A DNA stretch of 23,695 bases, taken from the NCBI GenBank assembly GCA_030867685.1, contig JAQOWU010000004.1, positions 62,001 to 85,695 of the forward strand, read 5' to 3'. This DNA comes from Wickerhamiella versatilis (Eukaryota). Positions 1,564 through 23,695 of this stretch are shown in pieces; position 1 is the stretch's first letter, and each line of letters opens with the position of its first letter. The translations under genes and the position numbers were made by a program. The notes under the pieces are model-generated. The model searched no databases. It was not told the DNA's origin and worked only from the letters and a program-made list of their open reading frames with translations.

Positions 1564-1601
1564 ATCTTGCATTGTCCAACCAGTCTCGGGTAGTGAAGTG
1601 G
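1564..1601 (-). repeat. Interstitial near-full copy of the 41-bp unit
   Basis: ATCTTGCATTGTCCAACCAGTCTCGGGTAGTGAAGTGG, 37/38 match to the reverse complement of the terminal array. Confidence 0.95.
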
Positions 1602-1714: not shown

Positions 1715-1738
1715 TGGACAATGCAAGATAGCCCACTT
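1715..1738 (+). repeat. Interstitial partial copy of the 41-bp unit
   Basis: TGGACAATGCAAGATAGCCCACTT, 24/24 match. Confidence 0.92.
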
Positions 1739-5033: not shown

Positions 5034-5376
5034 GAACATCGGGCGGCATCAACTACCATGATAATACTGGCTATAGGGATAGCGGCTTATTTATAATTTG
5101 ATTTTATAATAATTGCAATTAAATATTTAAATTTTTTTTATCTCACATGGATAGTTATATTCCTGGGGGCTTTTTCTTACTGCACTATTTCTATCCTGTT
5201 ACACTGCAAGATAGGTGGATATATTTATATATGGTCAAGCCAGCTAATTAATTACTTGATACTATTATAATACAACCAAAAAGAATGGCTTCGTGAGGCA
5301 TTGAGTAGTCTAACACGTAACCATAAATCTCGATTACACGAACCGAGCCAGTGCTTTGTTAATGTAAAGCTGAAAT

Positions 5377-5406
5377 CCACTTCACTACCTGGAAAAGATA
5401 GCCCAC
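5377..5406 (+). repeat. Internally deleted copy of the 41-bp unit
   Basis: CCACTTCACTACCTG (15/15) + GAA + AAGATAGCCCAC (12/12). Preceded by GCTGAAAT, as at 19959. Confidence 0.85.
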
Positions 5407-5516
5407 AGTTAAGACTCACATCCTCTTCGTGAATGGTTTTATCAAGCATGCCGCAATTGGCTCTTTTGATGTTCCCTATATCATGAACAATGTTTCTACA
5501 AAATTCCCTATATACC

Positions 5517-5555
5517 GGGCTCTCTTGCATTGTTCAACAAGTTTCAAGCAGTGAA
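5517..5555 (-). repeat. Decayed interstitial copy of the 41-bp unit
   Basis: GGGCTCTCTTGCATTGTTCAACAAGTTTCAAGCAGTGAA vs GGGCTATCTTGCATTGTCCAACCAGTCTCAGGTAGTGAA, 33/39 ungapped. Confidence 0.85.
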
Positions 5556-5677
5556 ACGAAATACAATATATGCATGAATGAACCTAATAGCGTAAATATA
5601 CATACAATGAGAAAGCATCTAGCAACAAATTCCATCATCTATCATTACCGATACTATGGTCGCCTAATGTCTGTACA

Positions 5678-6796
5678 CTAAATTGGTCCTAATGGCTCTT
5701 CGCTGCAGGCTAAGTTGCATTGGCGATAAATACGTGTTTCTCCAGGATAGAAGCTACCAGTAACACAGTGTAGCACTCCATGATTATTGAATAGTGCAAG
5801 GTCTCCCTCGTCCCAATCCACTGGGTAGACAAGTTCAGGCGCGATACCTGGACGCTGTAAGCGGTACACTATCTCACGTACCTCTGAAAGGTCGTCCATG
5901 ACAGTGCCATTAGCACAGTGTAGTTTCTCGACAGCCAATGGATGAATTTGCAGGGCCAGCTTACCTGTCACTGGATTGCGCCAGCACATAGGAAGAATCT
6001 TAATTTTGGAATCATCAATGGGTGGTAACTGTTCATAGCCCAGTTCGAGCCCCTGGGATATCATTCCAAGTCCATTCGAGCGAGACTTCGCATTTGAGAT
6101 CCAGATGTATGGGTGTGGGGCATACTGTACTCTTGTGGTACGAGCAAACTTCTTATCTTTCTCTGACAACAAGTCATACATGGTATATGAACTCACAAAT
6201 GCGGTTGACCCGCGTGGTACTCTGAGCGACTCGCTAGTGCCATCGTCGTAAAGTAGATTCTGGTGCCCAGCCTTGGGAACCCGAACTGCCATCAGTGAGG
6301 TTACACGGGGCGGGTTGAAGTCATAAAATGCAGCATCTATGTGCCACCGGAAGAAGCGCGTATACTCCCGGTCATTTTCCGGGGTGATATATGTTCTGTG
6401 GAATGTCCGATGGTGGGGATGCTTCAACGTAAAATTCTCGAGTCCCTCGAACTCAGCAACAGAGCCGTTGCCAATTACTTGAACTTGTGGCTGATGCGGT
6501 ATAGTTTTGGCATTGTGCTGAAGGATGGATTTTGCTGCATGGATTGTCTTTCCATGGCCATATTCCTGGACGCCAGGATCGAATAATCTCGTAAGCTCAT
6601 ATTGAGCTTTGGGTGAAAGGTGGTGCTGGCCCTTGAAGAGAATAAGTTGATTTTCATAAAGTGCATTTTTTATTACCTCAAAATCTGATGAAGTGATGTT
6701 CTCCAGGTCTGCACCCTGGAGTTCTGCACCGAAACTCACTTTGGAATGATTAGGAGTGGGGAGTGGATGCACAGTTATGCAGGATGTTGCGGCCAT
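5678..6796 (-). CDS. xanA: Fe(II)/alpha-ketoglutarate-dependent xanthine dioxygenase (TauD/TfdA family)
   Basis: Likely ATG 6796 (MAATS). Metal-binding HxD in RWHIDAA and distal His in FNNHGVLHCVTG. LKHPHHRTFH, YAPHPYIW and YRQCNLA resemble fungal XanA. Divergent from a purine permease. Confidence 0.85.
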   Translation of the reverse strand: MAATSCITVHPLPTPNHSKVSFGAELQGADLENITSSDFEVIKNALYENQLILFKGQHHLSPKAQYELTRLFDPGVQEYGHGKTIHAAKSILQHNAKTIPHQPQVQVIGNGSVAEFEGLENFTLKHPHHRTFHRTYITPENDREYTRFFRWHIDAAFYDFNPPRVTSLMAVRVPKAGHQNLLYDDGTSESLRVPRGSTAFVSSYTMYDLLSEKDKKFARTTRVQYAPHPYIWISNAKSRSNGLGMISQGLELGYEQLPPIDDSKIKILPMCWRNPVTGKLALQIHPLAVEKLHCANGTVMDDLSEVREIVYRLQRPGIAPELVYPVDWDEGDLALFNNHGVLHCVTGSFYPGETRIYRQCNLACSEEPLGPI

Positions 6797-7106
6797 GATT
6801 GACACTAGTAGCCTCTTTGCACAATAGTCAAGCAACCCAAGTTAGCTAGTCAGATACAAATGTGAATCAAAAAGCAAATATAAAAGGCTGCTGACATTGC
6901 TAGGCTTAGTCCATGGTGGGTTGGGAAGCTTGTCTCATTTAGGAGATGGGGTAAAGCAACCTTAAAAGAACTCAGCCATAATTTTTATGTAGTATACCCC
7001 TCTTAATTGTTGGTTTATTTTGCCCTAGCATGAGCCTGGTTGGATACAACTACGCTGCAGGGTGAAGGACCTGGGTCATGTGCCACTATCATTAGGGCTA
7101 GGTCTA

Positions 7107-7150
7107 CGCGGAGAGTCTTATCTTCTCCACGATATCTCTCACCGCGGAGA
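7107..7150. promoter_or_regulatory. Candidate regulatory cluster in the xanA/permease divergent promoter (CGG-containing repeats around a GATA site)
   Basis: CGCGGAGA at 7107 and 7143, an inverted TCTCCACG at 7124, and CTTATC (GATAAG on the minus strand) at 7117. Consistent with Zn2Cys6 plus GATA-factor control of purine catabolism, but not proven. Confidence 0.3.
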
Positions 7151-7342
7151 ATAAGAGGTAATAGAGTGGTGGCAATTGTTGATACAGACTAGCGAAAAAA
7201 TCCAATTAATCCCATCTTATACAGTGTAAATGCACAGCGGTAACAGTAAAGTGGTGAAGGACGATTCATTCAACCTGAAGTTAACGCCCCTTAGTAACCT
7301 CCGGTTATTTCACCCTGCTTAATCTACCTCTGGCAAGATAGA

Positions 7343-9184
7343 ATGTTGTTCAACAATAATTGTTCCAATTCCAACTCTATTTGGCATAACTTTAGGGTAT
7401 CTGCTAAGAACAAAAAGCACAAAGGTCGTGCAAACCCCCTACCCCCACCAGCTCAGCATGCACCCACAAATACGTTGCGACGGATGTGGAGGGAGATATA
7501 CCATATGTTTTGCACTTATGATGGTATTATCGGTGATGAAGTGGACTACTTCTCTTTATTTAGGCCCACTATCCCCTTCACTAAATGGAAATCACAGGCC
7601 CCTCACTTTTTTTCTTTACACTCGCGTCCCCCCCTACTATTGACAATAATTCTCGGATTGCAACACGCAATGGCAATGATGGGAGGTCTTATATCTCCAC
7701 CTCTGATGTTTGCCTCAGCTGCTAACTTAGAGGATCCAGATAAAGAGTATCTCGTATCTTGCGCATTGCTGGGTGCGGGTATTCTTACCCTGATTCAACT
7801 TCTGAGGGTCCACATTCCCTACACGAAGCTCTATATTGGGACGGGTATGATCTCTGTTTTGGGAGAGTCATTTGGTGTAGTTCCAATTTTTCAAGATATG
7901 GTTCCTCGAATGTATGCAAGTGGCTTTTGCCCCACAGATGGTGATGGTAATAAGCTGCCATGTAGAGAAGCTTATGGCGCCTTTTTAGCAACAGGAGCGC
8001 TCTGTGCGCTGCTTCAGGTGGTATTATCGCTTTTACCACCTCGTATACTTGAACGTGTTTTTCCACCGATAGTTGTAGGGGCAGTGGTTCTGCTAACCGG
8101 TGCAGCACTCGCAGCGTCAGGTGTACAGGATTGGGCAGGTGGCTCAAGCTGCATGTCTGGCGGACTCTGCAATTCCAGTGTACCTAATCATACACACCCA
8201 TGGGGATCTGGGCAATGGATTGGACTGGGATTCGTGGTTATAGTTGCTATAATACTATGTGACAAGTTTGGTTCCCCGATCATGAAGTCCTGCTCTATTT
8301 TTATTGGCCTTTTGGTGGGATGCATCGTCGCAGCTGCAACAGGCTACTTCCAGCACGAATCCATTGATGTGGCTCCTAACGGCCAATTTGTGTGGGTGAG
8401 GACTTTCCCATTGAAGCTTTATGGTCCTGCAGTTCTCCCATTGTTAGCTATATACCTCGTCCAGATTATGGAGTCTATTGGCGATATAACGGCCTCAGCC
8501 GATGTTTCACGGCTCGAAGTTGAGGGTGAGGAATTTGAATCGCGGGTTCAAGGCGGCCTAATGGCCTCAGGCTTGGCCTCTATTGTAGGGGGATTAATGA
8601 CCTTGACACCAATGGCGACATTTGCTCAAAACAATGCAGTAATATCGATGACTCAAGCCCCTTCACGATGTGTGGGCTTCGCCTGTTGTTTTTTTCTCAT
8701 CATCATGGGCGTTGTGGGCAAGTTTAGTGCAGCCATTGTTGCCATTCCACACGCAATTATAGGAGGAATGACTACTTTTCTTTTCACAGCTGTGGGAGTG
8801 AGTGGGCTGGCCATTGTGTCTAAATCCACTTTTAACCGTCGTGACAGAATGGTCCTCGGAATAGGCCTGACCTTTGGCTTTGCTTCGCTAATGGTTCCGT
8901 CTTGGTTCTCAGGAGTATTCACATATAAGGGAGATAATGTTGGCAAGCAGGGTTTCATAAATGCTATTGTAACTGTTGTCGAAACTCCATATTGCATATG
9001 TGGTATAGCAGGAGCATTGGCAAATGTTTTCTTGCCGCCCCAGGACGATATGCCAGAGTTACTCGAAGGGAAGGATCCTCATCCTGATAAGATCCCCAGT
9101 AAGTGGGAGACGGTGAAGTCCAGGATGCAAAAAGGATTTGATATTGAGCCTACTGGCAAGACGGTTACGGTTCTTCCTGATTAG
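7343..9184 (+). CDS. NCS2/NAT family uric acid-xanthine permease (UapA/UapC-like)
   Basis: LGLQHAMAM (TMS1 QH), FPPIVVG, MESIGDITAS and the NAT signature region FAQNNAVISMTQ. The start is uncertain; a small 5' intron is possible. Confidence 0.92.
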   Translation: MLFNNNCSNSNSIWHNFRVSAKNKKHKGRANPLPPPAQHAPTNTLRRMWREIYHMFCTYDGIIGDEVDYFSLFRPTIPFTKWKSQAPHFFSLHSRPPLLLTIILGLQHAMAMMGGLISPPLMFASAANLEDPDKEYLVSCALLGAGILTLIQLLRVHIPYTKLYIGTGMISVLGESFGVVPIFQDMVPRMYASGFCPTDGDGNKLPCREAYGAFLATGALCALLQVVLSLLPPRILERVFPPIVVGAVVLLTGAALAASGVQDWAGGSSCMSGGLCNSSVPNHTHPWGSGQWIGLGFVVIVAIILCDKFGSPIMKSCSIFIGLLVGCIVAAATGYFQHESIDVAPNGQFVWVRTFPLKLYGPAVLPLLAIYLVQIMESIGDITASADVSRLEVEGEEFESRVQGGLMASGLASIVGGLMTLTPMATFAQNNAVISMTQAPSRCVGFACCFFLIIMGVVGKFSAAIVAIPHAIIGGMTTFLFTAVGVSGLAIVSKSTFNRRDRMVLGIGLTFGFASLMVPSWFSGVFTYKGDNVGKQGFINAIVTVVETPYCICGIAGALANVFLPPQDDMPELLEGKDPHPDKIPSKWETVKSRMQKGFDIEPTGKTVTVLPD

Positions 9185-9538
9185 ACTCGGTATACCTTTT
9201 TTATTAGGTACTACCATAGGTTGAAAAGGTATAGGTTTCAGGATTATATTTACCAAGACATCATGCATCTTCTGGAAGCTAGTTGGCGTGGCTTATCCAT
9301 TGGTATCTCATAATCGGGCAGTAAAGACGAACGGACTTCATAATAAGACCCTACTGTTTATGGCGTCATTCCTGTGGGTTTGGGTTGTATCGTTGTTAAT
9401 TATTCCATAATTCCACGGAGCTAGAGGTATTATCTAAATCAGTACAAAAAAGGAGCAAGACTATTTTCTTTTGTTTGCAGGCATAAGCTGGAGCTTTAAG
9501 TTTGCTACAATCAGAGAAAAGCATTATCCCACAAAAGA

Positions 9539-12253
9539 TTAGGGCGTACCAGCAGAGTAGAAGCTCGAACTTATGTTAAATCCTGAGGCAGAAACAATAG
9601 GTGTATTAGAAGAATACACACTGTACAACGGACTGCTTGAAACAGTTTTGCTGGAACGTGCCGAGCTCCCAGTTGAACTGTAGCGCGGTGCGGACATTGA
9701 TAACGTCGAGCTCAGCCCACATGTATCTTTACAAGGTACAATATCTGCATTAGGCCCACTACAAGAAGGTACCTCAATTTCCGTCAGCGGATTATAGTAT
9801 TCATCAAGGAAAAGATTACGGTACCTCTCATTGACCTCTTCGACCATCAATGTTGTGTTAAAAGGGCATTTTTCTGCATCAGTCGTAGCGCCAGTCAAGT
9901 CCATCAATGAGGTGAGTGATGATTGCAATAGCACATTCCAGTCGTTTATTGTGCTTGAATTAATCCATTGCAAGTCATATACACCATGGTCATAGGTATC
10001 GAAGGGTGCCCACCAGGCAAACAATACCATATCCATTCTTTCCCATAAATTATTCGCCTGGCAAGGTTTTACACAGCTGATTTGGGAGATGGCGTCAGTA
10101 AATTTGATCATCTCCCCCTCGCCTTCTGAGTAAAATTTCTGCGCTTCGGTTCCCAAGGGGAAGTTGCCGTTTGCAGCATCATATTTATCAGGATGAAGAC
10201 CACTCAGCGCACTATTCACAGCCGATGCCGCAGAGAGTGCTGCACTGTAAGCATTGCTAAAGGAATATGTCTTTGTGGGCGCGAATGTACCAGGAGCTGA
10301 TTGGGTGGGGGTTATCGAGGCTGTTGCAGTAGGATAAGCCGTGACATCCATTGTAGTTGTTGCATTGGGAGTAGCAGTACATCTGTCGGTACACTTACAA
10401 TCGTATCCTCCGCTGGCAAAGCAAGTCACAGTGGGTATGGTCGATGGCTTCACTTCTTCGCCACTCCAAATAGATCCATATACCTCATTGACACTTATAA
10501 TCGCTTCACTAATATCCACGGGGCATGCCTGTGGAACAGTCCTAGCATTTTGGAAGTTCATTAATGTTGATAATGGGTTTTCAAATAATGCTGTCCATTG
10601 ATCTACCGTAGAGACGTTAAGCCATTGGTCATCAAGTATGTCATGGCCGTACGCCTTAAGGGGGTCGTACCAATACTTCATTACGGTGTTCAACGACGCA
10701 AACAAGTTGAACGCCTGGCACGGTTGAATACAACCTATAGTTGTAACAGCCTCTGCAAAAGCCTTCATTTGGCTTTCACTCTCTGCATATATCTTTTTAG
10801 CATCCTCAGCACTAATGCGACTACTAGTATCATTAGCATGAAGGCTTGCAAGTTTGTTTCCCGCTTGCTGGGCCGCACGCAGCGCATTGTCGTAGACATC
10901 TGAGCCCGTAATTACCGGGGCGGTACAGGGAGAAGACGTTGTTGTTGGTTGATCCCATGGCCAATCAAAGCTGGTGGGAAGAGTGATTGGAGGCAAGGTA
11001 AACGGGAAAGGAAACCCACCTCCAGTGGCATCTTTGGTCGTCGTTGGCACGCTGTATCCACTAGGGGTCACTGCTTTAGGTATTGAGGACTCAATTGGCT
11101 CAACATTGGAATCACTGCTTTGCTTTACAGGAGCAATAGCATATTCATCGTTGTCCAGATCTACCGTCAAAGAAATCTGGCGCAGGATAGGATCTCCAAG
11201 AATATACATACTGGTGAAAAACTCATTTAGTCCCCGAGTCACTGAAAGTGTGTACACACCATCCTCAGCCTCGATAACCATATCTTTTGGTGGGACCTGA
11301 ATCGTAACCCCAGAGAAAGTCAGATTAAGCGGAGGCTTACCGGCCAAATCAGCATTCTGAGATACGTATGTTTGACTGACCTGTTCCCACTGAAAACCAT
11401 ATACTTCTGCAATGTTGTCAGCTGCGGTTTGGGGAAGCATTATCAATGAAGTGCCCGTATCCCAGATTCCCTCGAAATGCTCGCCATCGTCAGTTTCTGC
11501 ATCTACAGACAAATAATTGGCAGAGGATATACCCTCGTACGTTCTTGGAAGCTTGTAAAGGGGGCCATCATACTTTGCAGAATCAACCCCGCCGAAAATA
11601 ATGGTGGCCTCTGTAGAGTCTTCGTTTGATGTGAAGATTGTGAACGAGTTTGAGTCAATAGTACCTTGATCCTTAAGTCGCTGAACATACGGAGTATATG
11701 ACGGATCACGAGTCTCTGCTTTTTTCACAGAGCAACCGAATATTCCCATATTGTCCGGAAAGTACTGGGGACTGGACTGATTAGCAAAGGCAAAAGGATA
11801 GTTAGCGACTGATGCACCACCAACAGAGATGGTGTCACTGGCCCAGGATCCCGAGATTTGATTCGAGCCATCGCCATATGCAGCTTTGAAATTATTGTTA
11901 CTCCAGTGATAAGCTGATGACTTGGCTGCCTTCTCTGGGTCAAACGTGTGCTCACTGCCAGCAGCAGTAGAAAACCCCCAGGTGTCACTACTTCCCGTAT
12001 CGAAAATGCCAGTCAATTCTTGGTCGCCTACCTTATAATCAATAAGGTACTCAATACTAGTGAAGTTAAGGACAGATTCAGGGAGCCTGACATGAGCGGA
12101 CCCTGGATTATGAGTACGTCGTCTAGACGTACGAACCTTCTTTGCAGTGAGTTCAATGGACCCAGGTCCAGTTCCACTATTGGAACGCTTTTCAGGTGCA
12201 GCTAGTGCAGTGATGGCCGTGACGACCACCCCCAAAAGAACTGATCCTCGCAT
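9539..12253 (-). CDS. Secreted pepsin-like aspartic protease with a long C-terminal extension of two Cys-containing repeated domains and Ser/Thr-rich linkers
   Basis: Signal peptide from ATG 12253 (MRGSVLLGVVVTAITALA) and a KR processing site. Catalytic motifs FDTGSSDTW and WDTGTS, flap YGDGS, IIFGGVDSAKYDG and YILGDPILR. Confidence 0.9.
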   Translation of the reverse strand: MRGSVLLGVVVTAITALAAPEKRSNSGTGPGSIELTAKKVRTSRRRTHNPGSAHVRLPESVLNFTSIEYLIDYKVGDQELTGIFDTGSSDTWGFSTAAGSEHTFDPEKAAKSSAYHWSNNNFKAAYGDGSNQISGSWASDTISVGGASVANYPFAFANQSSPQYFPDNMGIFGCSVKKAETRDPSYTPYVQRLKDQGTIDSNSFTIFTSNEDSTEATIIFGGVDSAKYDGPLYKLPRTYEGISSANYLSVDAETDDGEHFEGIWDTGTSLIMLPQTAADNIAEVYGFQWEQVSQTYVSQNADLAGKPPLNLTFSGVTIQVPPKDMVIEAEDGVYTLSVTRGLNEFFTSMYILGDPILRQISLTVDLDNDEYAIAPVKQSSDSNVEPIESSIPKAVTPSGYSVPTTTKDATGGGFPFPFTLPPITLPTSFDWPWDQPTTTSSPCTAPVITGSDVYDNALRAAQQAGNKLASLHANDTSSRISAEDAKKIYAESESQMKAFAEAVTTIGCIQPCQAFNLFASLNTVMKYWYDPLKAYGHDILDDQWLNVSTVDQWTALFENPLSTLMNFQNARTVPQACPVDISEAIISVNEVYGSIWSGEEVKPSTIPTVTCFASGGYDCKCTDRCTATPNATTTMDVTAYPTATASITPTQSAPGTFAPTKTYSFSNAYSAALSAASAVNSALSGLHPDKYDAANGNFPLGTEAQKFYSEGEGEMIKFTDAISQISCVKPCQANNLWERMDMVLFAWWAPFDTYDHGVYDLQWINSSTINDWNVLLQSSLTSLMDLTGATTDAEKCPFNTTLMVEEVNERYRNLFLDEYYNPLTEIEVPSCSGPNADIVPCKDTCGLSSTLSMSAPRYSSTGSSARSSKTVSSSPLYSVYSSNTPIVSASGFNISSSFYSAGTP

Positions 12254-12816
12254 ACTGGACAAGCTAAGGCTCTATAGTGCTGGCATCGCCATTCGAATAT
12301 ATATAAGCGAGTGACAAGCTACGTCGATCATTGTCGGGTCAAGGGTATAATTAAATTAATATTGCAATTGCCGATACGGTCAGTGATCTGCATCGGTATT
12401 CCGACAATCTGGTGTAATCGAGAACAAGAGAAATCTCATTGACCCAACTGTGTACAGCTTTTCCCCCCAATCCTTTGCAGCCTACGTTCTTCTTCACACA
12501 AAATCCCCTGTCTTTTCCCTAAGAAAGTGACGATCTCGATCTACATTGACTTACTAATTGTCAAATAGTGGCCCAGCCCTCTGTGGGATGGAAGCCACAC
12601 ATAAGATATGATATAATTAACAACCGGTGGCCGCATATCAAGTTTTATACGTATCACACAAGAACTATTCTACGGTTGCATCTCCATAATCGGATATGCA
12701 GGATGCGTTACGGGTAGGATGCTGTATTGCTTATCAGCTCCTAGAGTTAAACCTAACCCATGTTGATCATAATGAGTACAGAGACTTTCGGCACATGCAC
12801 TAGGATTCAAAGCCAA

Positions 12817-12855
12817 ACTGGTTGGGCAACGCATGATAGCACACTTCACTACCTG
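12817..12855 (+). repeat. Decayed interstitial copy of the 41-bp unit
   Basis: ACTGGTTGGGCAACGCATGATAGCACACTTCACTACCTG, 35/39 ungapped. Confidence 0.9.
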
Positions 12856-12949
12856 CCACTGATTAGGTACATGATAGTCCTTAAATAATAACAATGATCC
12901 TGCATTCCTGTTGACCAGACCTTGGGTTTCTAATAAAGTTGGAAGGAAT

Positions 12950-13540
12950 TTAGCTATATGTATACATACCGGGGTTATGTGCTAAAAACCTCTGTTGATG
13001 ATAAACAAAAGCTGTTGAAAAATCTCTCCCAAAATCTGTGATACTTCGTGCTGGCTTTCCCACCACATCTTTGAAGTCATCGGTAACTAGGTTACCCCAG
13101 TTCGTGCTGTACGCCATAAAGTAACCACAAAGCAAGTTCACACTCCATTCGTCTATTCCAAAGCTTACCATCGTCTTCCAACTATCATCTATGGTTGCAG
13201 GTTAATTAGCAACCTTCTTGTGGATAGAATTGCCAATTGTCTCAGTAATCTGATTCATAGATAACGACTCCAGCCCTATTATAGTGTAAATCTTCCCTTC
13301 ATGCCCTTCTGGGTTTGCCAATATACACGCGGCAAATTCGGCTATGTCGCGAGAGTCAATGAGTCCCATTCGACTATCAGCTAATGGACAATTGAGTGCA
13401 CCCGTCTCAACTATTAACTGAGCAGATCCTAATAAGCTTTGCATGAAAAAATGTGGCTTGATTATCGTATATGGAATTTCTGAAGTGATCAGTTCGGCAT
13501 TTGACAAGCCATGCAGTCTGCTATTTCCGTAATCAAACAT
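12950..13540 (-). pseudogene. NmrA-like / atypical SDR NAD(P)-binding protein remnant, bacterial-like
   Basis: ORFs 13202..13540 and 12950..13171 are in the same frame, separated by one TAA at 13202-13204 (KKVAN*PATIDDSWKTM). Motifs: YTIIKPHFFMQSL, IDSRDIAEFAACILANPEGHEGKIYTIIG and VTDDFKDVVGKPARSITDFGRD. The N-terminal Rossmann glycine motif is absent. Confidence 0.8.
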
Positions 13541-14177
13541 AAATATAATCTCTCGTTCTTCCCGTAGCTGTTAACTCGTAAACCTGCTGTAATCACAGTA
13601 CATGCTTGTTGTGCTTGTGCTTGTTTATACGAATCGGTAGATTCGTTAGTTCCAATCTATTTTCCAGGCCATAGCTACAGTCTCATGGATCGATAAGTGA
13701 TTGCCTTTTGTTATCTCACTTATTTTCTGAAGGACACAAAAAAAAGAATACTTATGTATCTGTGCAGCATGTTACTAAGTAATTACTCACAAAGTACACC
13801 TGCGATTATGCTAACGGATTACGTCGCGTGACTTTACAATTAATACTATTCTTGGTATTTCTGGATGGATCGTCGAATAACTAGTAGAAATTGACATCGG
13901 AATCGTTTGCTTCTGTATTCTATACGTATAGCGGAGCGCGGCGGCACTGGAGCCAGTGGTGGAGGCAGGAGGTTTTGACATTTCTGCCTGCGTCCTGACC
14001 GAACATGGGTTAGCACGAAATACATGTGAAGTATTTCACTAAATGTCCAGGGACAAATAGAAGTATTGAACTATTAACGTGAATATTATTGATTAAGCGG
14101 CAATTAAGGACCTTCCCATGGTCATGGGTGACTTAGGCTCTTATTTGAAGCGATATTACGTTGACCAGAGAAGAGCT

Positions 14178-15290
14178 CTAAACGTCTTCACCAACCCTCT
14201 TATTCAAATATTTATCAATTGCTCCTTGATCGTTGGGATTATGAAGATGAGTCGGGAATTTGGTTTCCACTATAAAGTCTGCCAAAAAAACAAGGTCCTC
14301 TCCAAGAGGAATATATTTCGATGACTTGAAAGCTGAAAGTGCTTTTATCTGTATCTCGGCATTAGTTTCATTTCCAGCCATGATTAACTTGCCATAGTGC
14401 GGCAGAGTATCCGCTTTAGGCCCCCCGATCACATCGAGCGGATTATTTGGAACGTCCGAAGAGTAGCTTCCCCACACATCTCCATAGTTGACAAAACTGA
14501 TAAAGTTGGTCGCTTTTCCTGTAGCGCTGGAATTTTGCGGGAATCCGGCGCCCTCAAAAGCCACACCACCAAATCCAAACTGCCGGCCAACATACTCAGC
14601 CTCACCTGCCCCCGTCGAGTGCCCAGTGACGTAAATATCTGACACAGACCTTTTCTCGCCTTTTGCTACTACGTAAACAAGACGGCAGAATGCAGCAGCA
14701 TTCTTTTGTCCTTCATTTACCGTGCCACTTACGCTTCCTTCATCTTGAACAAGGCTTCCTAGGTCGGTAGGAAGGTTCTCTATTTGAAAGCCAGAGAATG
14801 CGATGATAATTTTGTCAGTTTCACTTACAAAAACGCGTGCATTCATACCGGTAGCAGTGTCGTACGCGCTGAGCTGCTTGTTAGAACCGGGCACATTATA
14901 TGGTTTCAAGCTCGAATTAGAGGGAACCGACGGCACGGAGTAAAAAGTGGACTTCTCGACAGCTAGTGATGCCTGCATCAATTGGTCAATGGTTGGTGCA
15001 TTAGCGTCGTTATTTTGTTCACTGGCGTCAACTGCTGGTACTGGGGCATTATTGGCATTGAGAAGATCGTAGAAAGCAGGAGCAGCGGCTTGAGAGCCCC
15101 CTTTAGGCGCCCATATCTCGCTTAATACAATATTTGCGGGTGAATACTCGTAGAGAGCCTGTAATACTTCCTGTAGCATATACACACCACGCAGTTGGCT
15201 GGCAATACTCCCGTCACCATCACGCCTTTCAAGTACAGGGGCAGAGTTCACAGCCAATAGCAGGCTGAAAAACACTGATATGCTGACCAT
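14178..15290 (-). CDS. Secreted lipase-like alpha/beta hydrolase (lipase class 3 / Mbeg1-like)
   Basis: Signal peptide from ATG 15290 (MVSISVFFSLLLAVNSAP) and a dibasic ERR site. Motifs: KIIIAFSG, nucleophile elbow IYVTGHSTG, GVAFEGAG, FVNYGDVW and a C-terminal His (THLH). Confidence 0.8.
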   Translation of the reverse strand: MVSISVFFSLLLAVNSAPVLERRDGDGSIASQLRGVYMLQEVLQALYEYSPANIVLSEIWAPKGGSQAAAPAFYDLLNANNAPVPAVDASEQNNDANAPTIDQLMQASLAVEKSTFYSVPSVPSNSSLKPYNVPGSNKQLSAYDTATGMNARVFVSETDKIIIAFSGFQIENLPTDLGSLVQDEGSVSGTVNEGQKNAAAFCRLVYVVAKGEKRSVSDIYVTGHSTGAGEAEYVGRQFGFGGVAFEGAGFPQNSSATGKATNFISFVNYGDVWGSYSSDVPNNPLDVIGGPKADTLPHYGKLIMAGNETNAEIQIKALSAFKSSKYIPLGEDLVFLADFIVETKFPTHLHNPNDQGAIDKYLNKRVGEDV

Positions 15291-16082
15291 TGTCGATAAA
15301 CAAGAAATTTCGATCACATGCTGTGCGTTCACTTTATATGCATGGATATGACCTACCCCCCGACAATACGCATCTCATCCCTTAACCAGAGATTACGCAT
15401 CGTGCTAAAACCAAGTTTAGAAGCATGAAGTCTTAATACATCAGAGGCGGCTAGCTAGTAGATATATTTCAGGCATTACGTTGCTCCTTTGACCCAATGG
15501 ATCTTAATATCTTTTATCTTTGGGCGAAGGAAAACGTGGTTTTACCACGCTATGATCCAAAGTAAGGGTTAAAGAGTGAGTTCTGGCTAATTGCTTCTCG
15601 GTATTCAATGGTTTTTATCTTGACTTTCAAATTCTCTTTATGTGAGCCCCCCCGGTCATAGCCCTAAGCCTAAAATATATACACGCATAATTTTTCAAAC
15701 GTGATGTTGTTTTAAAACCTCTTATAAGTATGCTTACACTAAAAAAAGTAATAACCGTTTAAAATTCCACGCACTCCTATCCTAAAAAGTCTGCTCAGCA
15801 AATGCTAGCTCTCAAATCTTATCGTAGTAATGACGATCTACACATGGTACGTACATATCGTGCTACAAGAGATATATCAGAATGATTAGTTATGGGCTCA
15901 ATTATGTCTAAAAAACTGTGAAAACATAGCGCACCTGTGTACACACTCACTATCTGTTTGAGATACCTAGCATCGTCAACCCAGAGGAATATCCAGGCCC
16001 CCCTGCAACTATATTTATGATATGAGATATGGGTTAGTTACAATAATTCAATAAATTAGCTTTGTTTATTTAATGTGTAGAT

Positions 16083-17170
16083 TTGGATGTCACCTTTTCA
16101 ACATTTTTGATTACAGCCTCAGCGATCATTAATAGGAAGTACCCAATGAGTAATATTAGACTTATCCAGGATGCGCTGTTTTCAATAGCCTATCAATACA
16201 ATGAAATAGAAGACGGCCAAAACGACTCGGACTCCAAATGGAAGATAAATAAGGCATTCTTTAGTTGCAGACAATCGAGAATCCTGAAATATTTGATCCC
16301 TCAAATAAACAGCTATTGCCAAGTTGGTAACGCAAAATATGGCTATTACAATGGCGAATGCGAACATAACTTTCGGCCCCGAATCCTCCCTTTTAAGGGC
16401 AAAAGTCGTTACAAAAACAACATAACAACATGCTATTATATTTGCTACGTCGAAGAGTATTTCGACTCTCAATATTGACAAGAGACGACGCCCTCATATT
16501 GCAATCGAAAAGGACGTGTAACCCCCTTATAAATAGCACACTCATCCTAGGATAAAACGTGATGTATATGTCATGTATGCGTAATGCCAAAAACATTAGC
16601 ATTGCCCAACCACGGATGCGAGTTTCAGTCATAGACTCCATCATTTGCCTGCTGTTTTCCTGTGATATTCCTAAATTTTTCGCTGTTGAGGTCTCGAATG
16701 GACAAAGCGTAGTTTGTGGTGGTGCAAGCCATAACAATGGGTCGCTTGGTTACGGGTCTGGAACTATTAATATACTGCAGTCTGATATATTCGAGTATTC
16801 GAATGGATCATTAATCGATATTTCCCATGATGGTCCAGCTAACTATGTTGTAGCAGGGCCATATGTGAGAAGTTACTATAAGAATGATAGTGGTGGATTG
16901 TACTATGTGGATCGTGGGAGCGAGCTTATACTCAGAGAATTGTTTAAGTTTTTATATTTTTCAGAGTGGAATGTGAAAAGAAATAGGCAGCTTACACACA
17001 ATGGAAACTCTGTGTTCTACGTGGATAGTGCGTCATGTGAAGTGCTGACAGATCCACCAGAAGAGTTTGGGAAAACAGGCCAAACCGTTAGTTTTTCTGT
17101 GAAGCCTATTGATCCTCTGTACCACCAAATATTGGTAGCAAGCCATTCACGACGGCCTAAGACTCCATGA
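16083..17170 (+). other. Two consecutive unassigned ORFs (131 and 203 codons), possibly one decayed orphan gene
   Basis: Same-strand ORFs in different frames in AT-rich DNA. No motif recognised. Confidence 0.25.
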
Positions 17171-17201
17171 ATCTCTTCAAACAATGAGAAGGCATACATA
17201 T

Positions 17202-17217
17202 GACATTGCAAGATAGC
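17202..17217 (+). repeat. Short interstitial fragment of the 41-bp unit
   Basis: GACATTGCAAGATAGC, 15/16 match. Confidence 0.55.
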
Positions 17218-17307
17218 TGATAGTTAATAGCTGACTGAATAGTAAATTGAAGCTCCATGTTAAATATTGTCACCAAATTGGATATTCAGCTGTAAAGCAA
17301 TCATGGC

Positions 17308-17535
17308 TTATAGTTCAGTGTGCAAGCGGGCGTCCAGGCGCTTATGGTGTCCAGGTAACAGTACCCACAGTATGAACCCCATTACACAAGCCAGAGAGGA
17401 AATACCAATACAGAAATACATTGTCCCCCGCCATGCCCTTAATTCTGGATCTGGATGGTTTTGCTGTTGAGCCAGCTGATGAGTGACAGTGCCGGCAATC
17501 CCCAAAAAAATGGAAATACCATAATGGGATAATAG
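17308..17535 (-). pseudogene. C-terminal remnant of an ATR1-like (DHA2) MFS transporter
   Basis: In-frame HYGISIFLGIAGTVTHQL...LRAWRGTMYFCIGISSLACVMGFILW resembles the last two TM segments of ATR1-family proteins (NYSISxGLGxAGTV...GYRGAxYxGIG). No upstream part of the gene is visible. Confidence 0.6.
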
Positions 17536-17715
17536 GTTTCGCTCTAGTACTTTCGACTATATTGTGCGCATATCACTTTTTTCATCACCTTCGCCAAGAT
17601 AATACAGACGTGGAAATTGGGTTTGAAAATCAAGATATCGAGGACAGATTATCTCATATTACTCACGAGAATCCGACTTAAGCCATATTGAATTCATATT
17701 TAGAAATAAGCTGTT

Positions 17716-17750
17716 CCTGAGACTGTGTGGACAATGCAAGATAGCCCACT
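17716..17750 (+). repeat. Interstitial partial copy of the 41-bp unit
   Basis: CCTGAGACTGTGTGGACAATGCAAGATAGCCCACT, 33/35 match. Confidence 0.93.
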
Positions 17751-18717
17751 CTTCTGACCTTATGATGATGAGAACTAGTAACGCTTAGGTCCAGGAAGAT
17801 GATTCAACATCTCGCTATGACAGTTATTTATAAGAATAGCATTATCGATGGCGTCGTAAATTCAGCGTACATGCGGATGCTATTGCCGTCATATTGCGGG
17901 GTTTGAAGATTTCGTTGGCAATTCGAGATTGACGCGTACAAAAAGCTCTGTGTTCAATTTTTTTTTCACATAATATCAATAAATCTATGCTTCGCTAGCG
18001 TTCCTTGGTCTTTCAGATTTCGACAGATGTCCACCAGCGATTACACAGGCACGAGACTACTTTAATCATTCTTTCGAAACTGATTTGCTGAAGACTTAGA
18101 ACATAGTTGACAAGAATCATAGTAAGAGGATTCGCATTTGTAGGTTGCCTTAGATAATGGTAGTGGACCGGAAGTGAGCCGAAGATCTTCGGTTATACCT
18201 GCTACCTTAGGGATTAGATAATATTTTATATTCCTAAAGCTATATGAGAATTATTGATTGTATCCATCTCAAACTCGTCGTCCTGCTCATCTTGAGGTAG
18301 CTGCTTAGATGTTGCATAAGTTTTATCTTGAGAAGTTGGTTGCAACAGGTATGCTACCGATATGAAAAAGAAAATATATACGGTATTCTATCTTCTATGT
18401 CTCTGCACTATTATTATTTTGATCATGGTTGAATTTTCTGGTGATAGAAACAGCCCCGTTGAGATATGTACTAGTGGAACGACATGCTCTATTATCTTAG
18501 TACAAAATACTATATATCCTAATTTGGCAATATAAGAATGAAGCATTCAACTAGTATACCTAGGTGCGTGTTGTCATAGTTATATGGATCTTTCCCGTAT
18601 ATAATGATGGTATTAAGGGAAATGAATGAATGTTGATAGGGGCTTGATCCATGGCTTATTTAGTGGATTTGTGGTCGAAGCTCTTAATGAGCTACGTACA
18701 CTTGTGTACAAAATGTT

Positions 18718-19701
18718 TTAGATTACAGGAACATAGTGAGCCAACCAGGAATCCATTACAGATGTTGCTGCATATGTCACATCTCCAAGTCGTAGGAGCA
18801 TTTCTACATGTCCTTCAAATCCCAAACCCTCAAATACGTGAAAGGATACATCAGTTCCTGCAGCGGTCAGAGTCGCAGCTAACTCGATGGCCTGGCGTAT
18901 ATCGCCTTGTCTCTGTACATGAAGGAGTAAAAAAGCACGCGCATTGGGTACATGTGCATGGTAAGTAGGTGACATGGCACGGAGTCTTGTTGGCACAGTG
19001 CCTAGCGCCTGAATCATATTGTCTGCTACAGGCCCTGGGCTATCTAAAATCTCTGCCGGTGCATTGTAATTGGATCCATCCAGAGATATTACTCCTACTA
19101 TTTTGTTGATGGGCAATCCTGACCGTTCCAGATAGCTCGTGTCAGTGCCAAGCAAAGTGGCAACATGCGCCCCTGAGCTGTGTCCCATCAGCACAATTCG
19201 TTCAGGATCAAGGTGAAACTCAGTCGCATTCTGTACTAGAAATGCCACAGATTCTGCTACCTCCTGCACCTGCTCCTCGACCGAAACTAAAGGAAATAGC
19301 GTGTAGTTGATGGTGGCAAATGCATAGCCCTCAGCAGTCAAATGGCCCACTTTGGCTGAGCCAGTGCTGTCCAAGTATGTACCAGATTTCCAACTACCAC
19401 CATGGATAAATACGATAATAGGGGCTGAGGATGATGCTGTGCTCTCCCATAAGCGAAGGCGTTGACTGTCGCGCTTTCCATATTTCAGATCCTTACCACC
19501 AGTAGGCTGGTCTAAATTCATCTGGGACATGAGATCCTGCACCCTATCTATCGAAATGTCATCCTCCGCAATTCCCTGATACAACTTCAACTCTCCCGTA
19601 ATCTCTTTTCTTTGAGGTCGTCTCGAATCGGTACTTATGGTGCTATCATTAGACACCGGCTGTGTGGATATTGAACTAGTTATTGTAGGAGAATCGCACA
19701 T
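18718..19701 (-). CDS. Alpha/beta hydrolase, carboxylesterase/arylformamidase-like (HSL-like family)
   Basis: IIVFIHGGSW oxyanion motif, GYAFATINY and nucleophile IVLMGHSSGAH, plus a C-terminal GH. Start at ATG 19701 (MCDS) or ATG 19806. Confidence 0.85.
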   Translation of the reverse strand: MCDSPTITSSISTQPVSNDSTISTDSRRPQRKEITGELKLYQGIAEDDISIDRVQDLMSQMNLDQPTGGKDLKYGKRDSQRLRLWESTASSSAPIIVFIHGGSWKSGTYLDSTGSAKVGHLTAEGYAFATINYTLFPLVSVEEQVQEVAESVAFLVQNATEFHLDPERIVLMGHSSGAHVATLLGTDTSYLERSGLPINKIVGVISLDGSNYNAPAEILDSPGPVADNMIQALGTVPTRLRAMSPTYHAHVPNARAFLLLHVQRQGDIRQAIELAATLTAAGTDVSFHVFEGLGFEGHVEMLLRLGDVTYAATSVMDSWLAHYVPVI

Positions 19702-19966
19702 GCTGAAAAATGCTACCGCACCACTTGAAAAGTAATTTGCATTATACTCCGAAGGATGTAGACCTTTTAGTAATACTGATTGCTGCCTCCTAACCACTAA
19801 CGTCATCAATGCATAACACTCCTAGTAAAAGGAAGGGGAGTTTGTGTTAATTAAGAGATATTAATAATTAAGAAATATTTGTAGAGATTATCAGCTGGTT
19901 TCGATATTTTGCTATGATCTTCTATAGCTGAGCCATTGATGCAGAGGATAGGACCTGTGCTGAAAT

Positions 19967-20012
19967 CCACTTCACTACCTGAGACTGGTTGGACAATGCA
20001 AGATACCCCACT
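19967..20012 (+). repeat. One full unit plus 5 nt of the 41-bp repeat (CCACT...CCACT)
   Basis: 45/46 match (G>C at 20006), terminally redundant CCACT, preceded by GCTGAAAT. Confidence 0.96.
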
Positions 20013-20395
20013 AAGCAGGAAGTCAGTCATCGGTCTGTTTGTTGATTAGTGCCAGTGACATCATTATCTAGAGGAAAATTCTAAGGCGTAAAGAGAGATG
20101 CTCAGAGCCTGACATTAGCCATTCAGCCCCAAAATTCTAACTATGAGCCATCCGAGAACAGAGATCTGAAATATATTCTTTCCTCCAGCACCAACTTCCT
20201 CCCAAATCACCCATCCAGGTAAATTACACCGGCCACGTTATCATCCCTCTAATTATACTAGTTTAACACCGACATAACGGTGATGAAAGTTTACCCTTTG
20301 AGTTTAGTATTTGATAAATGGCTATATGTAATAATTTATAATAAGGATCAGAGAATCAGTAATAAAATATCTCAAACATGCCAAGCAAGCTTCAT

Positions 20396-22946: not shown

Positions 22947-22967
22947 GACAATGCAAGATAGCCCACT
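22947..22967 (+). repeat. Interstitial partial copy of the 41-bp unit
   Basis: GACAATGCAAGATAGCCCACT, 21/21 match. Confidence 0.9.
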
Positions 22968-23048
22968 CCGGGTAGGGTTGGAAAGAGGGCTTATATTAAT
23001 TGTGATTTAACGTGAATATTGCATTTCATATTCATTATTATATAAAAG

Positions 23049-23228
23049 ATGTCTATTACGCTTGTCACTGGAGCGAACCAAGGACTGGGACTCGCATTGA
23101 TTGTTGCCCTAGCTGAACACGATTCAAGTTCTAAGTTGATTCTGGCATCTCGAAACCTCGTTAACGGGCAAAAAGCGGCTGCTGATCTCCAAAAGAAGGG
23201 ATACACGAATATTGATACTGTACAGCTT
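23049..23228 (+). pseudogene. Short-chain dehydrogenase/reductase truncated after 60 codons by the tandem array
   Basis: MSITLVTGANQGLG (TGxxxGxG), LILASRN and IDTVQL, then the frame runs into the repeat where the conserved LD(V) Asp is expected. Confidence 0.88.
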
Positions 23229-23695
23229 GGTTGGACAATGCAAGATAGCCCACTTCACTACCTGAGACTGGTTGGACAATGCAAGATAGCCCACTTCACT
23301 ACCTGAGACTGGTTGGACAATGCAAGATAGCCCACTTCACTACCTGAGACTGGTTGGACAATGCAAGATAGCCCACTTCACTACCTGAGACTGGTTGGAC
23401 AATGCAAGATAGCCCACTTCACTACCTGAGACTGGTTGGACAATGCAAGATAGCCCACTTCACTACCTGAGACTGGTTGGACAATGCAAGATAGCCCACT
23501 TCACTACCTGAGACTGGTTGGACAATGCAAGATAGCCCACTTCACTACCTGAGACTGGTTGGACAATGCAAGATAGCCCACTTCACTACCTGAGACTGGT
23601 TGGACAATGCAAGATAGCCCACTTCACTACCTGAGACTGGTTGGACAATGCAAGATAGCCCACTTCACTACCTGAGACTGGTTGGACAATGCAAG
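23228..23695 (+). repeat. Perfect tandem array of a 41-bp unit, about 11.4 copies to the window end; candidate telomere
   Basis: GGACAAT recurs at 23233, 23274, 23315 and onward (period 41). No variants or spacers seen. The array itself is certain; the telomere role is inferred. Confidence 0.95.

Follow-up and report, generated by a model that had tools for sequence, protein, structure and literature searches.

The window analysed here is a 23,695-nucleotide stretch of Wickerhamiella versatilis DNA (G000:C4:62001-85695) that reaches its contig end inside a telomeric array, and it raises the question of why two distant interstitial fragments of the telomeric repeat should be preceded by the same short piece of non-repeat DNA. 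The original prediction was that this piece is complementary to telomerase RNA just 3' of the template. The array (23228..23695, plus strand) consists of 11.4 perfect 41-bp units that run to the contig end. Because outward-pointing arrays of the same unit also lie at the C1 end and near the C7 and C8 starts, and the genome encodes TERT (one match genome-wide, near C7:1745k, in an open 766-aa frame, 73% identical to the TERT of a sister species), the 41-bp unit is telomeric. Unit positions are counted here from position 0, the start of CCACT. We consider it likely that two telomerase RNAs alternate obligately in building this repeat, and that the window copies are break-repair scars primed 8 to ~30 nt 3' of the template of one of them, gene A.

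The shared flank and gene A

Direct comparison confirmed that the 23-mers at 5369-5391 and 19959-19981 are identical and that the first eight letters, GCTGAAAT, lie outside the 41-bp unit. When the genome was searched for the 17-mer made of GCTGAAAT followed by CCACTTCAC, allowing at most one mismatch, there were three matches, all exact, while the reversed control gave none. These were the two window copies and G000:C7:1162739. The genome search that had been proposed thus converged on a single non-coding, mid-chromosome locus (gene A), whose minus strand reads as a template followed by exactly the predicted flank. Judged from its DNA, gene A is probably an expressed telomerase RNA gene. Flank extensions of nested length, also anticipated, were found: one window copy holds 8 nt of the gene A flank, the other 10 nt exactly plus ~20 diverged.

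The longer-flanked copy begins with a diverged likeness to sequence further upstream in gene A, and so further 3' in RNA A (5341..5366), followed by the 10-nt exact flank (5367..5376, with the 8-mer at 5369-5376) and an older, internally deleted unit copy (5377..5406) in which positions 0-14, the A part, are joined to positions 33-3, the B part (gene B is described below); all are on the plus strand. The claim that sequence upstream of the 8-mer differs between copies therefore holds only in part, since the 5369 copy resembles the C7 locus over ~30 nt. Its anchored score is 16, a value that 2 of 1000 shuffles and 1 of 452 comparisons with real flanks also attained, under a scoring scheme chosen after the match had been seen.

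The 19959 copy is more complete. Its first 36 letters (19959-19994) match G000:C7:1162739-1162774 at 36/36 positions and comprise the 8-nt non-repeat flank (19959..19966, identical to the DNA 5' of the gene A template) and the whole 28-nt gene A template (19967..19994, unit positions 0-27). Overlapping this A part by 9 nt is a whole 27-nt gene B template copy (19986..20012, plus strand, unit positions 19-4), which has one substitution (C for G at 20006) and stops precisely where B's template has its 5' boundary. The 19959 copy is also present in isolate X19. For isolate X1, none of the pieces listed spans 19919-19964 and the local contigs diverge, so the holes are uninformative about an empty site. 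One X19 contig matches 19960-20012 with three differences, covering seven flank letters and a whole unit; it may represent another copy with the flank, or the 5369 copy in undeleted form.

Sharing of this kind is rare among unit fragments. Our fragment sample covers 584,274 distinct bases (~6% of the genome), drawn from subtelomeric tiles and stretches around pattern hits, and yields 229 ungapped fragments of the unit, or 216 once those in the four arrays are set aside. Of the 724 fragment pairs with a common start position, seven share at least five upstream letters: four are duplicated or overlapping segments, and the other three are the GCTGAAAT pairs, which share 8, 8 and 10 nt where ~0.016 such pairs would be expected by chance. 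The 13 other fragments that start at position 0 have at most three flank letters in common with gene A. One of the fragments that start there lies in the window (1564..1601, minus strand, one substitution) and lacks the 8-mer. The T that precedes its CCACT, to which the original prediction drew attention, is present but carries no evidential weight: T precedes 8 of 11 other independent position-0 fragments and 29 of 53 controls, fragments with other starts for which the preceding unit letter is C (Fisher p=0.22).

We rejected the window copy itself (19959-20012) as a telomerase RNA gene: it has no folding signal and one mismatch to the telomere, and in both RNA runs (one random-primed, one poly(A)) depth is 0-3.4 at 19772-19941 and 0 at 20044-20349, with reads piled on the unit only.

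Two partial templates in paralogous genes

The original prediction assumed a single template. However, gene A holds only 28 of the 41 letters (positions 0-27; minus-strand RNA, G000:C7:1162747-1162774) and sits in the 794 bp that separate a 3-hydroxyanthranilate dioxygenase gene from a hydrolase gene. Fragment starts show two peaks, one of seven fragments at position 0 (1.6-2.0 at neighbouring positions) and another of 35 at positions 17-20 (~17 expected). The 28-nt template together with the second peak predicted a partner covering positions 19-4. When the region 3' of A was aligned to the same region of the 216 fragments, C7:1992145 scored 119, against 40 for the next best and a median of 25; the best score in 500 shuffles of the A/B alignment was at most 45. 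This locus (gene B) lies in a gap of ~800 bp between divergent genes and carries a 27-nt template with exactly the predicted positions 19-4 (G000:C7:1992145-1992171, RNA on the plus strand), which supplies the rest of the unit.

With the template masked, blastn finds 72% identity between A and B across 110 nt (E 7.9e-8 for a search space the size of the genome). Collinearity extends from a 5' block, equalled by 3 of 500 shuffles, as far as a common GTAAGT, with shared motifs at +86/+75, +109/+99, +145/+135 and +172/+161 from the template ends of A and B respectively, and with 75% identity in the core and 57-64% elsewhere. By this alignment, A and B are diverged paralogs. A 15-nt motif common to both occurs exactly only in these two genes genome-wide, and none of 22 near-matches extends; the exclusion of a more distant third paralog covers this motif and 84 stretches.

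The two templates fit together exactly. Each is a perfect complement of the telomeric strand oriented 5'-3' toward the chromosome end, whereas the flanking parts of the genes are only 57-75% alike. A overlaps B by 9 nt and B overlaps A by 5 nt, while each overlaps itself by only 1 nt, and 28+27-9-5 = 41, the unit length. An alternating A/B product rebuilt to 240 nt occurs verbatim in the window array, the first letter of which (position 19) is also the first letter of the gene B template; two of the four telomeric arrays begin at position 19. Neither template has one whole unit with a terminal direct repeat for self re-alignment, and it is for want of this feature that we do not class A or B as a canonical telomerase RNA.

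Both genes can nevertheless form much of the anatomy of one, over an apparent length of ~400-450 nt. In each, a 10-bp helix stops short of the template on its 5' side, by 6 nt in A and 7 nt in B, and closes just downstream of an H-type pseudoknot that can form 3' of the template. The pseudoknot has a 4-bp G/C stem, a U-rich first loop and a second stem of 8 bp with one bulge, preceded by an A-rich strand, in agreement with what PMC3592445 describes for telomerase pseudoknots of fungi and vertebrates. The letters of the enclosing helix differ between A and B while its pairing is kept, as is that of a small hairpin inside the pseudoknot with changed pairs. A duplex as good as the enclosing helix arose in 4 of 500 and 14 of 500 shuffles, and RNAalifold places an outer helix in both genes. 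Further 3', GTAAGT, a candidate 5' splice site, occurs at +310 (A, C7:1162437) and +298 (B, C7:1992469), followed by a branch-point motif. A carries an Sm-like motif at +203; the one in B, at +269, is weaker and does not align with it. The combination of Sm-like motif, GTAAGT and branch motif on the RNA-sense strand was found in 1 of 211 fragments, namely A, by a pattern chosen after A had been seen. These features suggest that A and B are probably telomerase-RNA-like genes, which would be transcribed and bound by TERT.

A 7-nt direct repeat also brackets the A template region (L003:1484-1490, 1536-1542), an arrangement seen in 2 of 224 fragments; sequences outside it can pair as a hairpin that competes with the enclosing-helix fold.

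Our data point to a split-template telomerase as the probable arrangement: two paralogous RNAs would hand the chromosome end back and forth to make a uniform 41-bp repeat, and the scars would record both template boundaries as well as RNA beyond them. A single TERT would be served by the two RNA genes, each with a partial template. Neither the A nor the B product would re-anneal to its own template start. An end made by B would instead pair over 5 nt with A, which would add 23 letters, and an end made by A would pair over 9 nt with B, which would add 18, such that strict alternation would yield the 41-bp repeat. The 9-nt hand-off would be efficient and the 5-nt hand-back weak or slow. At internal breaks, the A and B enzymes would act as well, usually stopping after B because the hand-back to A is weak, and the rejoined breaks would leave dispersed fragments. 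Priming on single-stranded RNA 3' of A's template would allow non-template RNA to be copied too: the broken end would have been primed 8 nt 3' of A's normal template in the 19959 copy and 10 to ~30 nt in the 5369 copy. The 19959 copy would then record synthesis through the flank and the whole A template, a hand-off to B, a stop at 20012 and end joining.

The fragment record and competing explanations

Fragments elsewhere in the genome provide a record of where synthesis would have begun and ended. In whole 10-kb tiles, 92 of 156 fragment ends fall at positions 0-5 (22.8 expected if uniform) and only 8 at positions 6-13, and past CCCACT the next letter agrees with the unit no more often than background (25 of 89); together these place the stop of synthesis at position 4, B's boundary. 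The window holds four other interstitial fragments: a B-type fragment at 1715..1738 ends at B's boundary (plus one chance letter), a fragment at 17716..17750 and a B-type fragment at 22947..22967 end exactly there, and a decayed fragment at 12817..12855 crosses the B-to-A junction (all plus strand). Among 214 interstitial fragments, 93 cross from A to B, 30 cross from B to A, 91 are B-only and 16 A-only, which fits an efficient 9-nt and a slow 5-nt hand-off. Fragments are mostly oriented toward the nearer telomere (31 of 39 at C7 left, 37 of 45 at C7 right). By analogy with vertebrate interstitial telomeric sequences (PMC8537989), we infer that the fragments represent short telomerase additions at breaks that were later rejoined.

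Two substitution excesses lie at A's boundary. An excess of A-to-C at position 28 (4 of 164 versus 0.58 expected) fits A reading one base too far. A second excess, C-to-A at position 27, the last letter of the A template (13 of 163 versus 3.1 expected, ~4x that at other C positions), is unexplained.

Several observations weigh against alternation between A and B. Fragments ending at A's boundary are nearly absent; with 93 of 214 crossing from A to B, this requires a very efficient A-to-B hand-off at breaks, and possibly both RNAs sit in one two-RNA complex, given the rarity of stops after A, but one long template would explain it more simply. Substitutions reveal no read-through at B's boundary (1 of 62 versus 1.1 expected), and a search of the letters that follow was too weak to retain (G after 19 of 63 ends, GG after 8 of 63). 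No fragment carried a clean copy of the gene B 3' flank: the only exact match was the gene itself, and two near-copies were ambiguous. Further pieces of gene A in other fragment flanks were no more frequent than in controls (8 matches; six control regions gave 4-8 and 30 shuffles 2-10). As for structure, the 10 in-register pseudoknot pairs are invariant between A and B and hence show no covariation, and the compensatory pairs come from two sequences registered by hand. Rfam gave no telomerase family match at A (E<=5) or B (E<=10). In folding, the 200 nt 3' of A reach only rank 27 of 94, and overall folding is modest (z -2.2 for 411 nt at A); no template-distal three-way junction was identified in A or B, with no junction model fitted. 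Finally, no read group that ends at 19959 with the 8-mer is among the six largest listed per RNA run (the smallest listed comprise 60 and 52 reads), which is compatible with a rare RNA and lends no support.

The same observations could be accommodated by an ordinary telomerase RNA with a 46-nt template, the length a single gene would need, hidden in an assembly gap; A and B would then be partly deleted duplicates, surviving as relics or minor RNAs, and the 8-mer would be that RNA's 3' flank. We regard this as unlikely. It would account for full-length fragments and the few ends at position 27 with no hand-off, and the 8-contig assembly does have gaps in which a third, full-length gene could be missing. 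It might also account for the largest unit-bearing read group (228 reads in the random-primed run X21, at window 19968), the flank of which two pattern searches did not find in G000. That group starts at unit position 1, with a flank unlike the fragment record, is not among the top groups of the poly(A) run and has a consensus agreement of 0.77; it may be a strain-specific copy, a telomere junction, a mixed consensus or a full-length RNA. Relics, however, should decay, whereas A and B differ by 25-43% outside their templates, yet those templates are perfect and tile the telomere exactly. The enclosing helix keeps its 6-7 nt spacing from different template ends in the two genes, and a second start peak near position 19 is also at odds with one long template. 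No full 46-nt template with this anatomy was found among all 53 exact matches of positions 0-14 or among exact matches of 14-4. Two patterns gave 0 matches in JGI metagenomes, where records near the organism's own genome may be left out, and among indexed sequencing runs no RNA run was listed as a holder. The only two perfect non-array copies (C8:309256 and C7:2636508, 50 nt each) were rejected because they have no 8-mer flank, no RNA-gene features and no likeness to A; the former folds poorly (rank 86 of 94), and the latter is subtelomeric, with a distal side common to the C8 start. The decayed copy at C7:2057256, next to a forkhead gene's stop codon, was rejected too, its RNA reads being part of that locus. 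An intron splitting the A template was likewise discarded, as there is no matching 18-mer within ~10 kb and no AG at the junction.

The remaining alternatives concern how the flanks or templates arose. We think it improbable, to about the same degree as a hidden 46-nt template or slightly more so, that the flanks were copied from gene A DNA by templated insertion in end joining, or were already present and favoured priming, either of which is compatible with alternation at telomeres. Short DNA-templated insertions are a general product of end joining, and five letters on the right side of the 5369 copy also resemble gene A. The 19959 copy, though, runs through the flank, the whole A template and a B part to B's boundary, the pattern of a telomerase product, and the sharp step from three loci sharing at least eight letters to at most three in all other position-0 fragments is not the geometric decay expected of chance priming homology. 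A joining of A and B transcripts as RNA, by trans-splicing or by recombination at the 9-nt overlap, would give one continuous template with no alternation at the DNA end and would account for the near absence of ends at A's boundary. It appears very unlikely: AG/GT splice signals are lacking at the template ends, both genes look complete, each with its own boundary helix, and the A-to-C excess at position 28 fits use of A's own boundary. Least probable, if only by a little, is that a repeat or RNA gene unrelated to telomerase gave rise to both A and B, which received independent telomeric insertions, the telomerase RNA lying elsewhere. Unit fragments are common in the sample, the 7-nt direct repeat around the A template resembles a target-site duplication, and Rfam finds no match, all of which would suit such insertions. 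Against them, two perfect fragments would have had to land at equivalent points of two diverged paralogs, each time immediately before a telomerase-type pseudoknot, and the lengths and overlaps that add exactly to the unit would be a coincidence to explain. We favor alternation between two RNAs.

Known systems and neighbouring features

The closest precedent for the flank-bearing copies is the vertebrate TERC-ITS, in which interstitial telomeric sequence is joined to a telomerase-RNA-derived piece (Sola et al. 2021, PMC8537989). The window copies conform to that definition with 8 and 10+ nt of the A flank, conditional on A being telomerase RNA. As here, one of the 41 TERC-ITS loci (in Xenopus) carries, collinear with its repeats, the stretch that adjoins the template on its 3' side. 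The vertebrate loci otherwise consist of hexamer arrays and mostly inverted pieces of distant domains, and derive from a single RNA gene, whereas the window copies are single-round yeast copies.

Fungal telomerase RNAs described for the Yarrowia clade (PMC6746865) and for Pezizomycotina and fission yeast (PMC3592445) resemble A and B in having a template, an adjacent enclosing helix, a pseudoknot with a U-rich loop 3' of the template, and a 5' splice site with a branch point at the 3' end. They differ in that their templates hold a whole unit plus a terminal direct repeat, while A and B are each limited to roughly two thirds of a unit and lack such a repeat, and the Y. lipolytica RNA, at ~950 nt (PMC6746865), is longer than the apparent length of A or B. 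A single TERT with two or more RNA genes of different template is known from Zygosaccharomyces sapae (PMC8211666), Mimulus lewisii (PMC12169523) and Andrena bees (bioRxiv 10.1101/2025.04.29.651168). In each of these, every paralog specifies a complete motif and the telomeres are mixed, with random alternation in Andrena, in contrast to A and B, neither of which alone specifies a repeat and which match a telomere of one uniform unit. Long putative units have been listed for Pichia norvegensis (43 nt) and Wickerhamiella domercqiae (30 nt), with no template source stated in the accessible part of that source (PMC7857110). The 41-nt unit is hence similar in length to that of P. norvegensis and not unprecedented, though its motifs were not found in the accessible portion of that unit table.

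In Candida tropicalis, two repeat variants come from two alleles, and engineered telomerase templates show functional interplay in S. cerevisiae. In literature drawn largely from outside subscription journals, we found no report of obligate alternation or of this 41-nt unit, and searches there for yeast insertions with telomerase RNA flank and for template switching likewise returned no obligate alternation.

By the standard rule, one telomerase RNA encodes the whole repeat and its own re-alignment region. Half-templates able to prime only each other would, if real, break this rule, although a cautious reader may call the arrangement a variant, since all its parts are of known kinds. Such a system would account for repeats longer than the known yeast templates of ~30 nt, explain why a duplicated RNA gene should be retained in two copies, and offer a natural setting in which to ask whether telomerase releases the end after each round or passes it between two RNAs. 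Other very long yeast repeats may be built by paired partial templates as well, in which case template searches that require 1.5 units in one place would miss the genes, for example in species with 30-43 nt units. Flank-bearing scars, in turn, make interstitial fragments usable for mapping template boundaries and locating telomerase RNA genes.

Several further features of the repeat and its fragments were apparent. The telomeric strand of the window array (5'-3' toward the chromosome end, 23228-23695) has 9 G and 11 C per unit and, unlike most telomeric strands, is not G-rich. Immediately before the array, a reading frame that starts near 23049, presumably of the short-chain dehydrogenase family, is truncated by the repeats (window 23044-23227), which suggests that a chromosome end was healed inside a gene. 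A fragment from position 19, B's start, at G000:C7:52187-52210 (L088) is preceded by a 7/8 match to the A flank, reflecting either a deleted A part or chance (~0.1 expected over all fragments).

Oppositely oriented fragments are paired ~110 bp apart at 1564-1738 and 5377-5560 in the window, with similar pairs at other loci. At C8:309250-309315 (L056:2951-3015), the perfect 50-nt copy has short inverted unit pieces on both sides, as might result if telomerase had extended both ends of a break, or from fold-back synthesis. The copy at C7:2057256-2057297 (L082:1472-1519) starts three letters past the stop codon of the forkhead-type gene, begins with 7 bp that recur ahead of it in perfect inverted form, and is transcribed in both RNA runs.

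Contig ends also carry traces of the unit. The C1 start and C3 end carry copies of one 2-3 kb repeated segment with a 13-nt unit fragment, and the gap between them may lie inside a repeat array. The C8 array (12 units) sits 3.1 kb inside the contig start (G000:C8:1-3635), and the sequence beyond it matches that beyond the 50-nt fragment near the C7 end (G000:C7:2636508-2639608), which suggests either that a telomere recombined with an interstitial fragment or that the sequences were joined in assembly.

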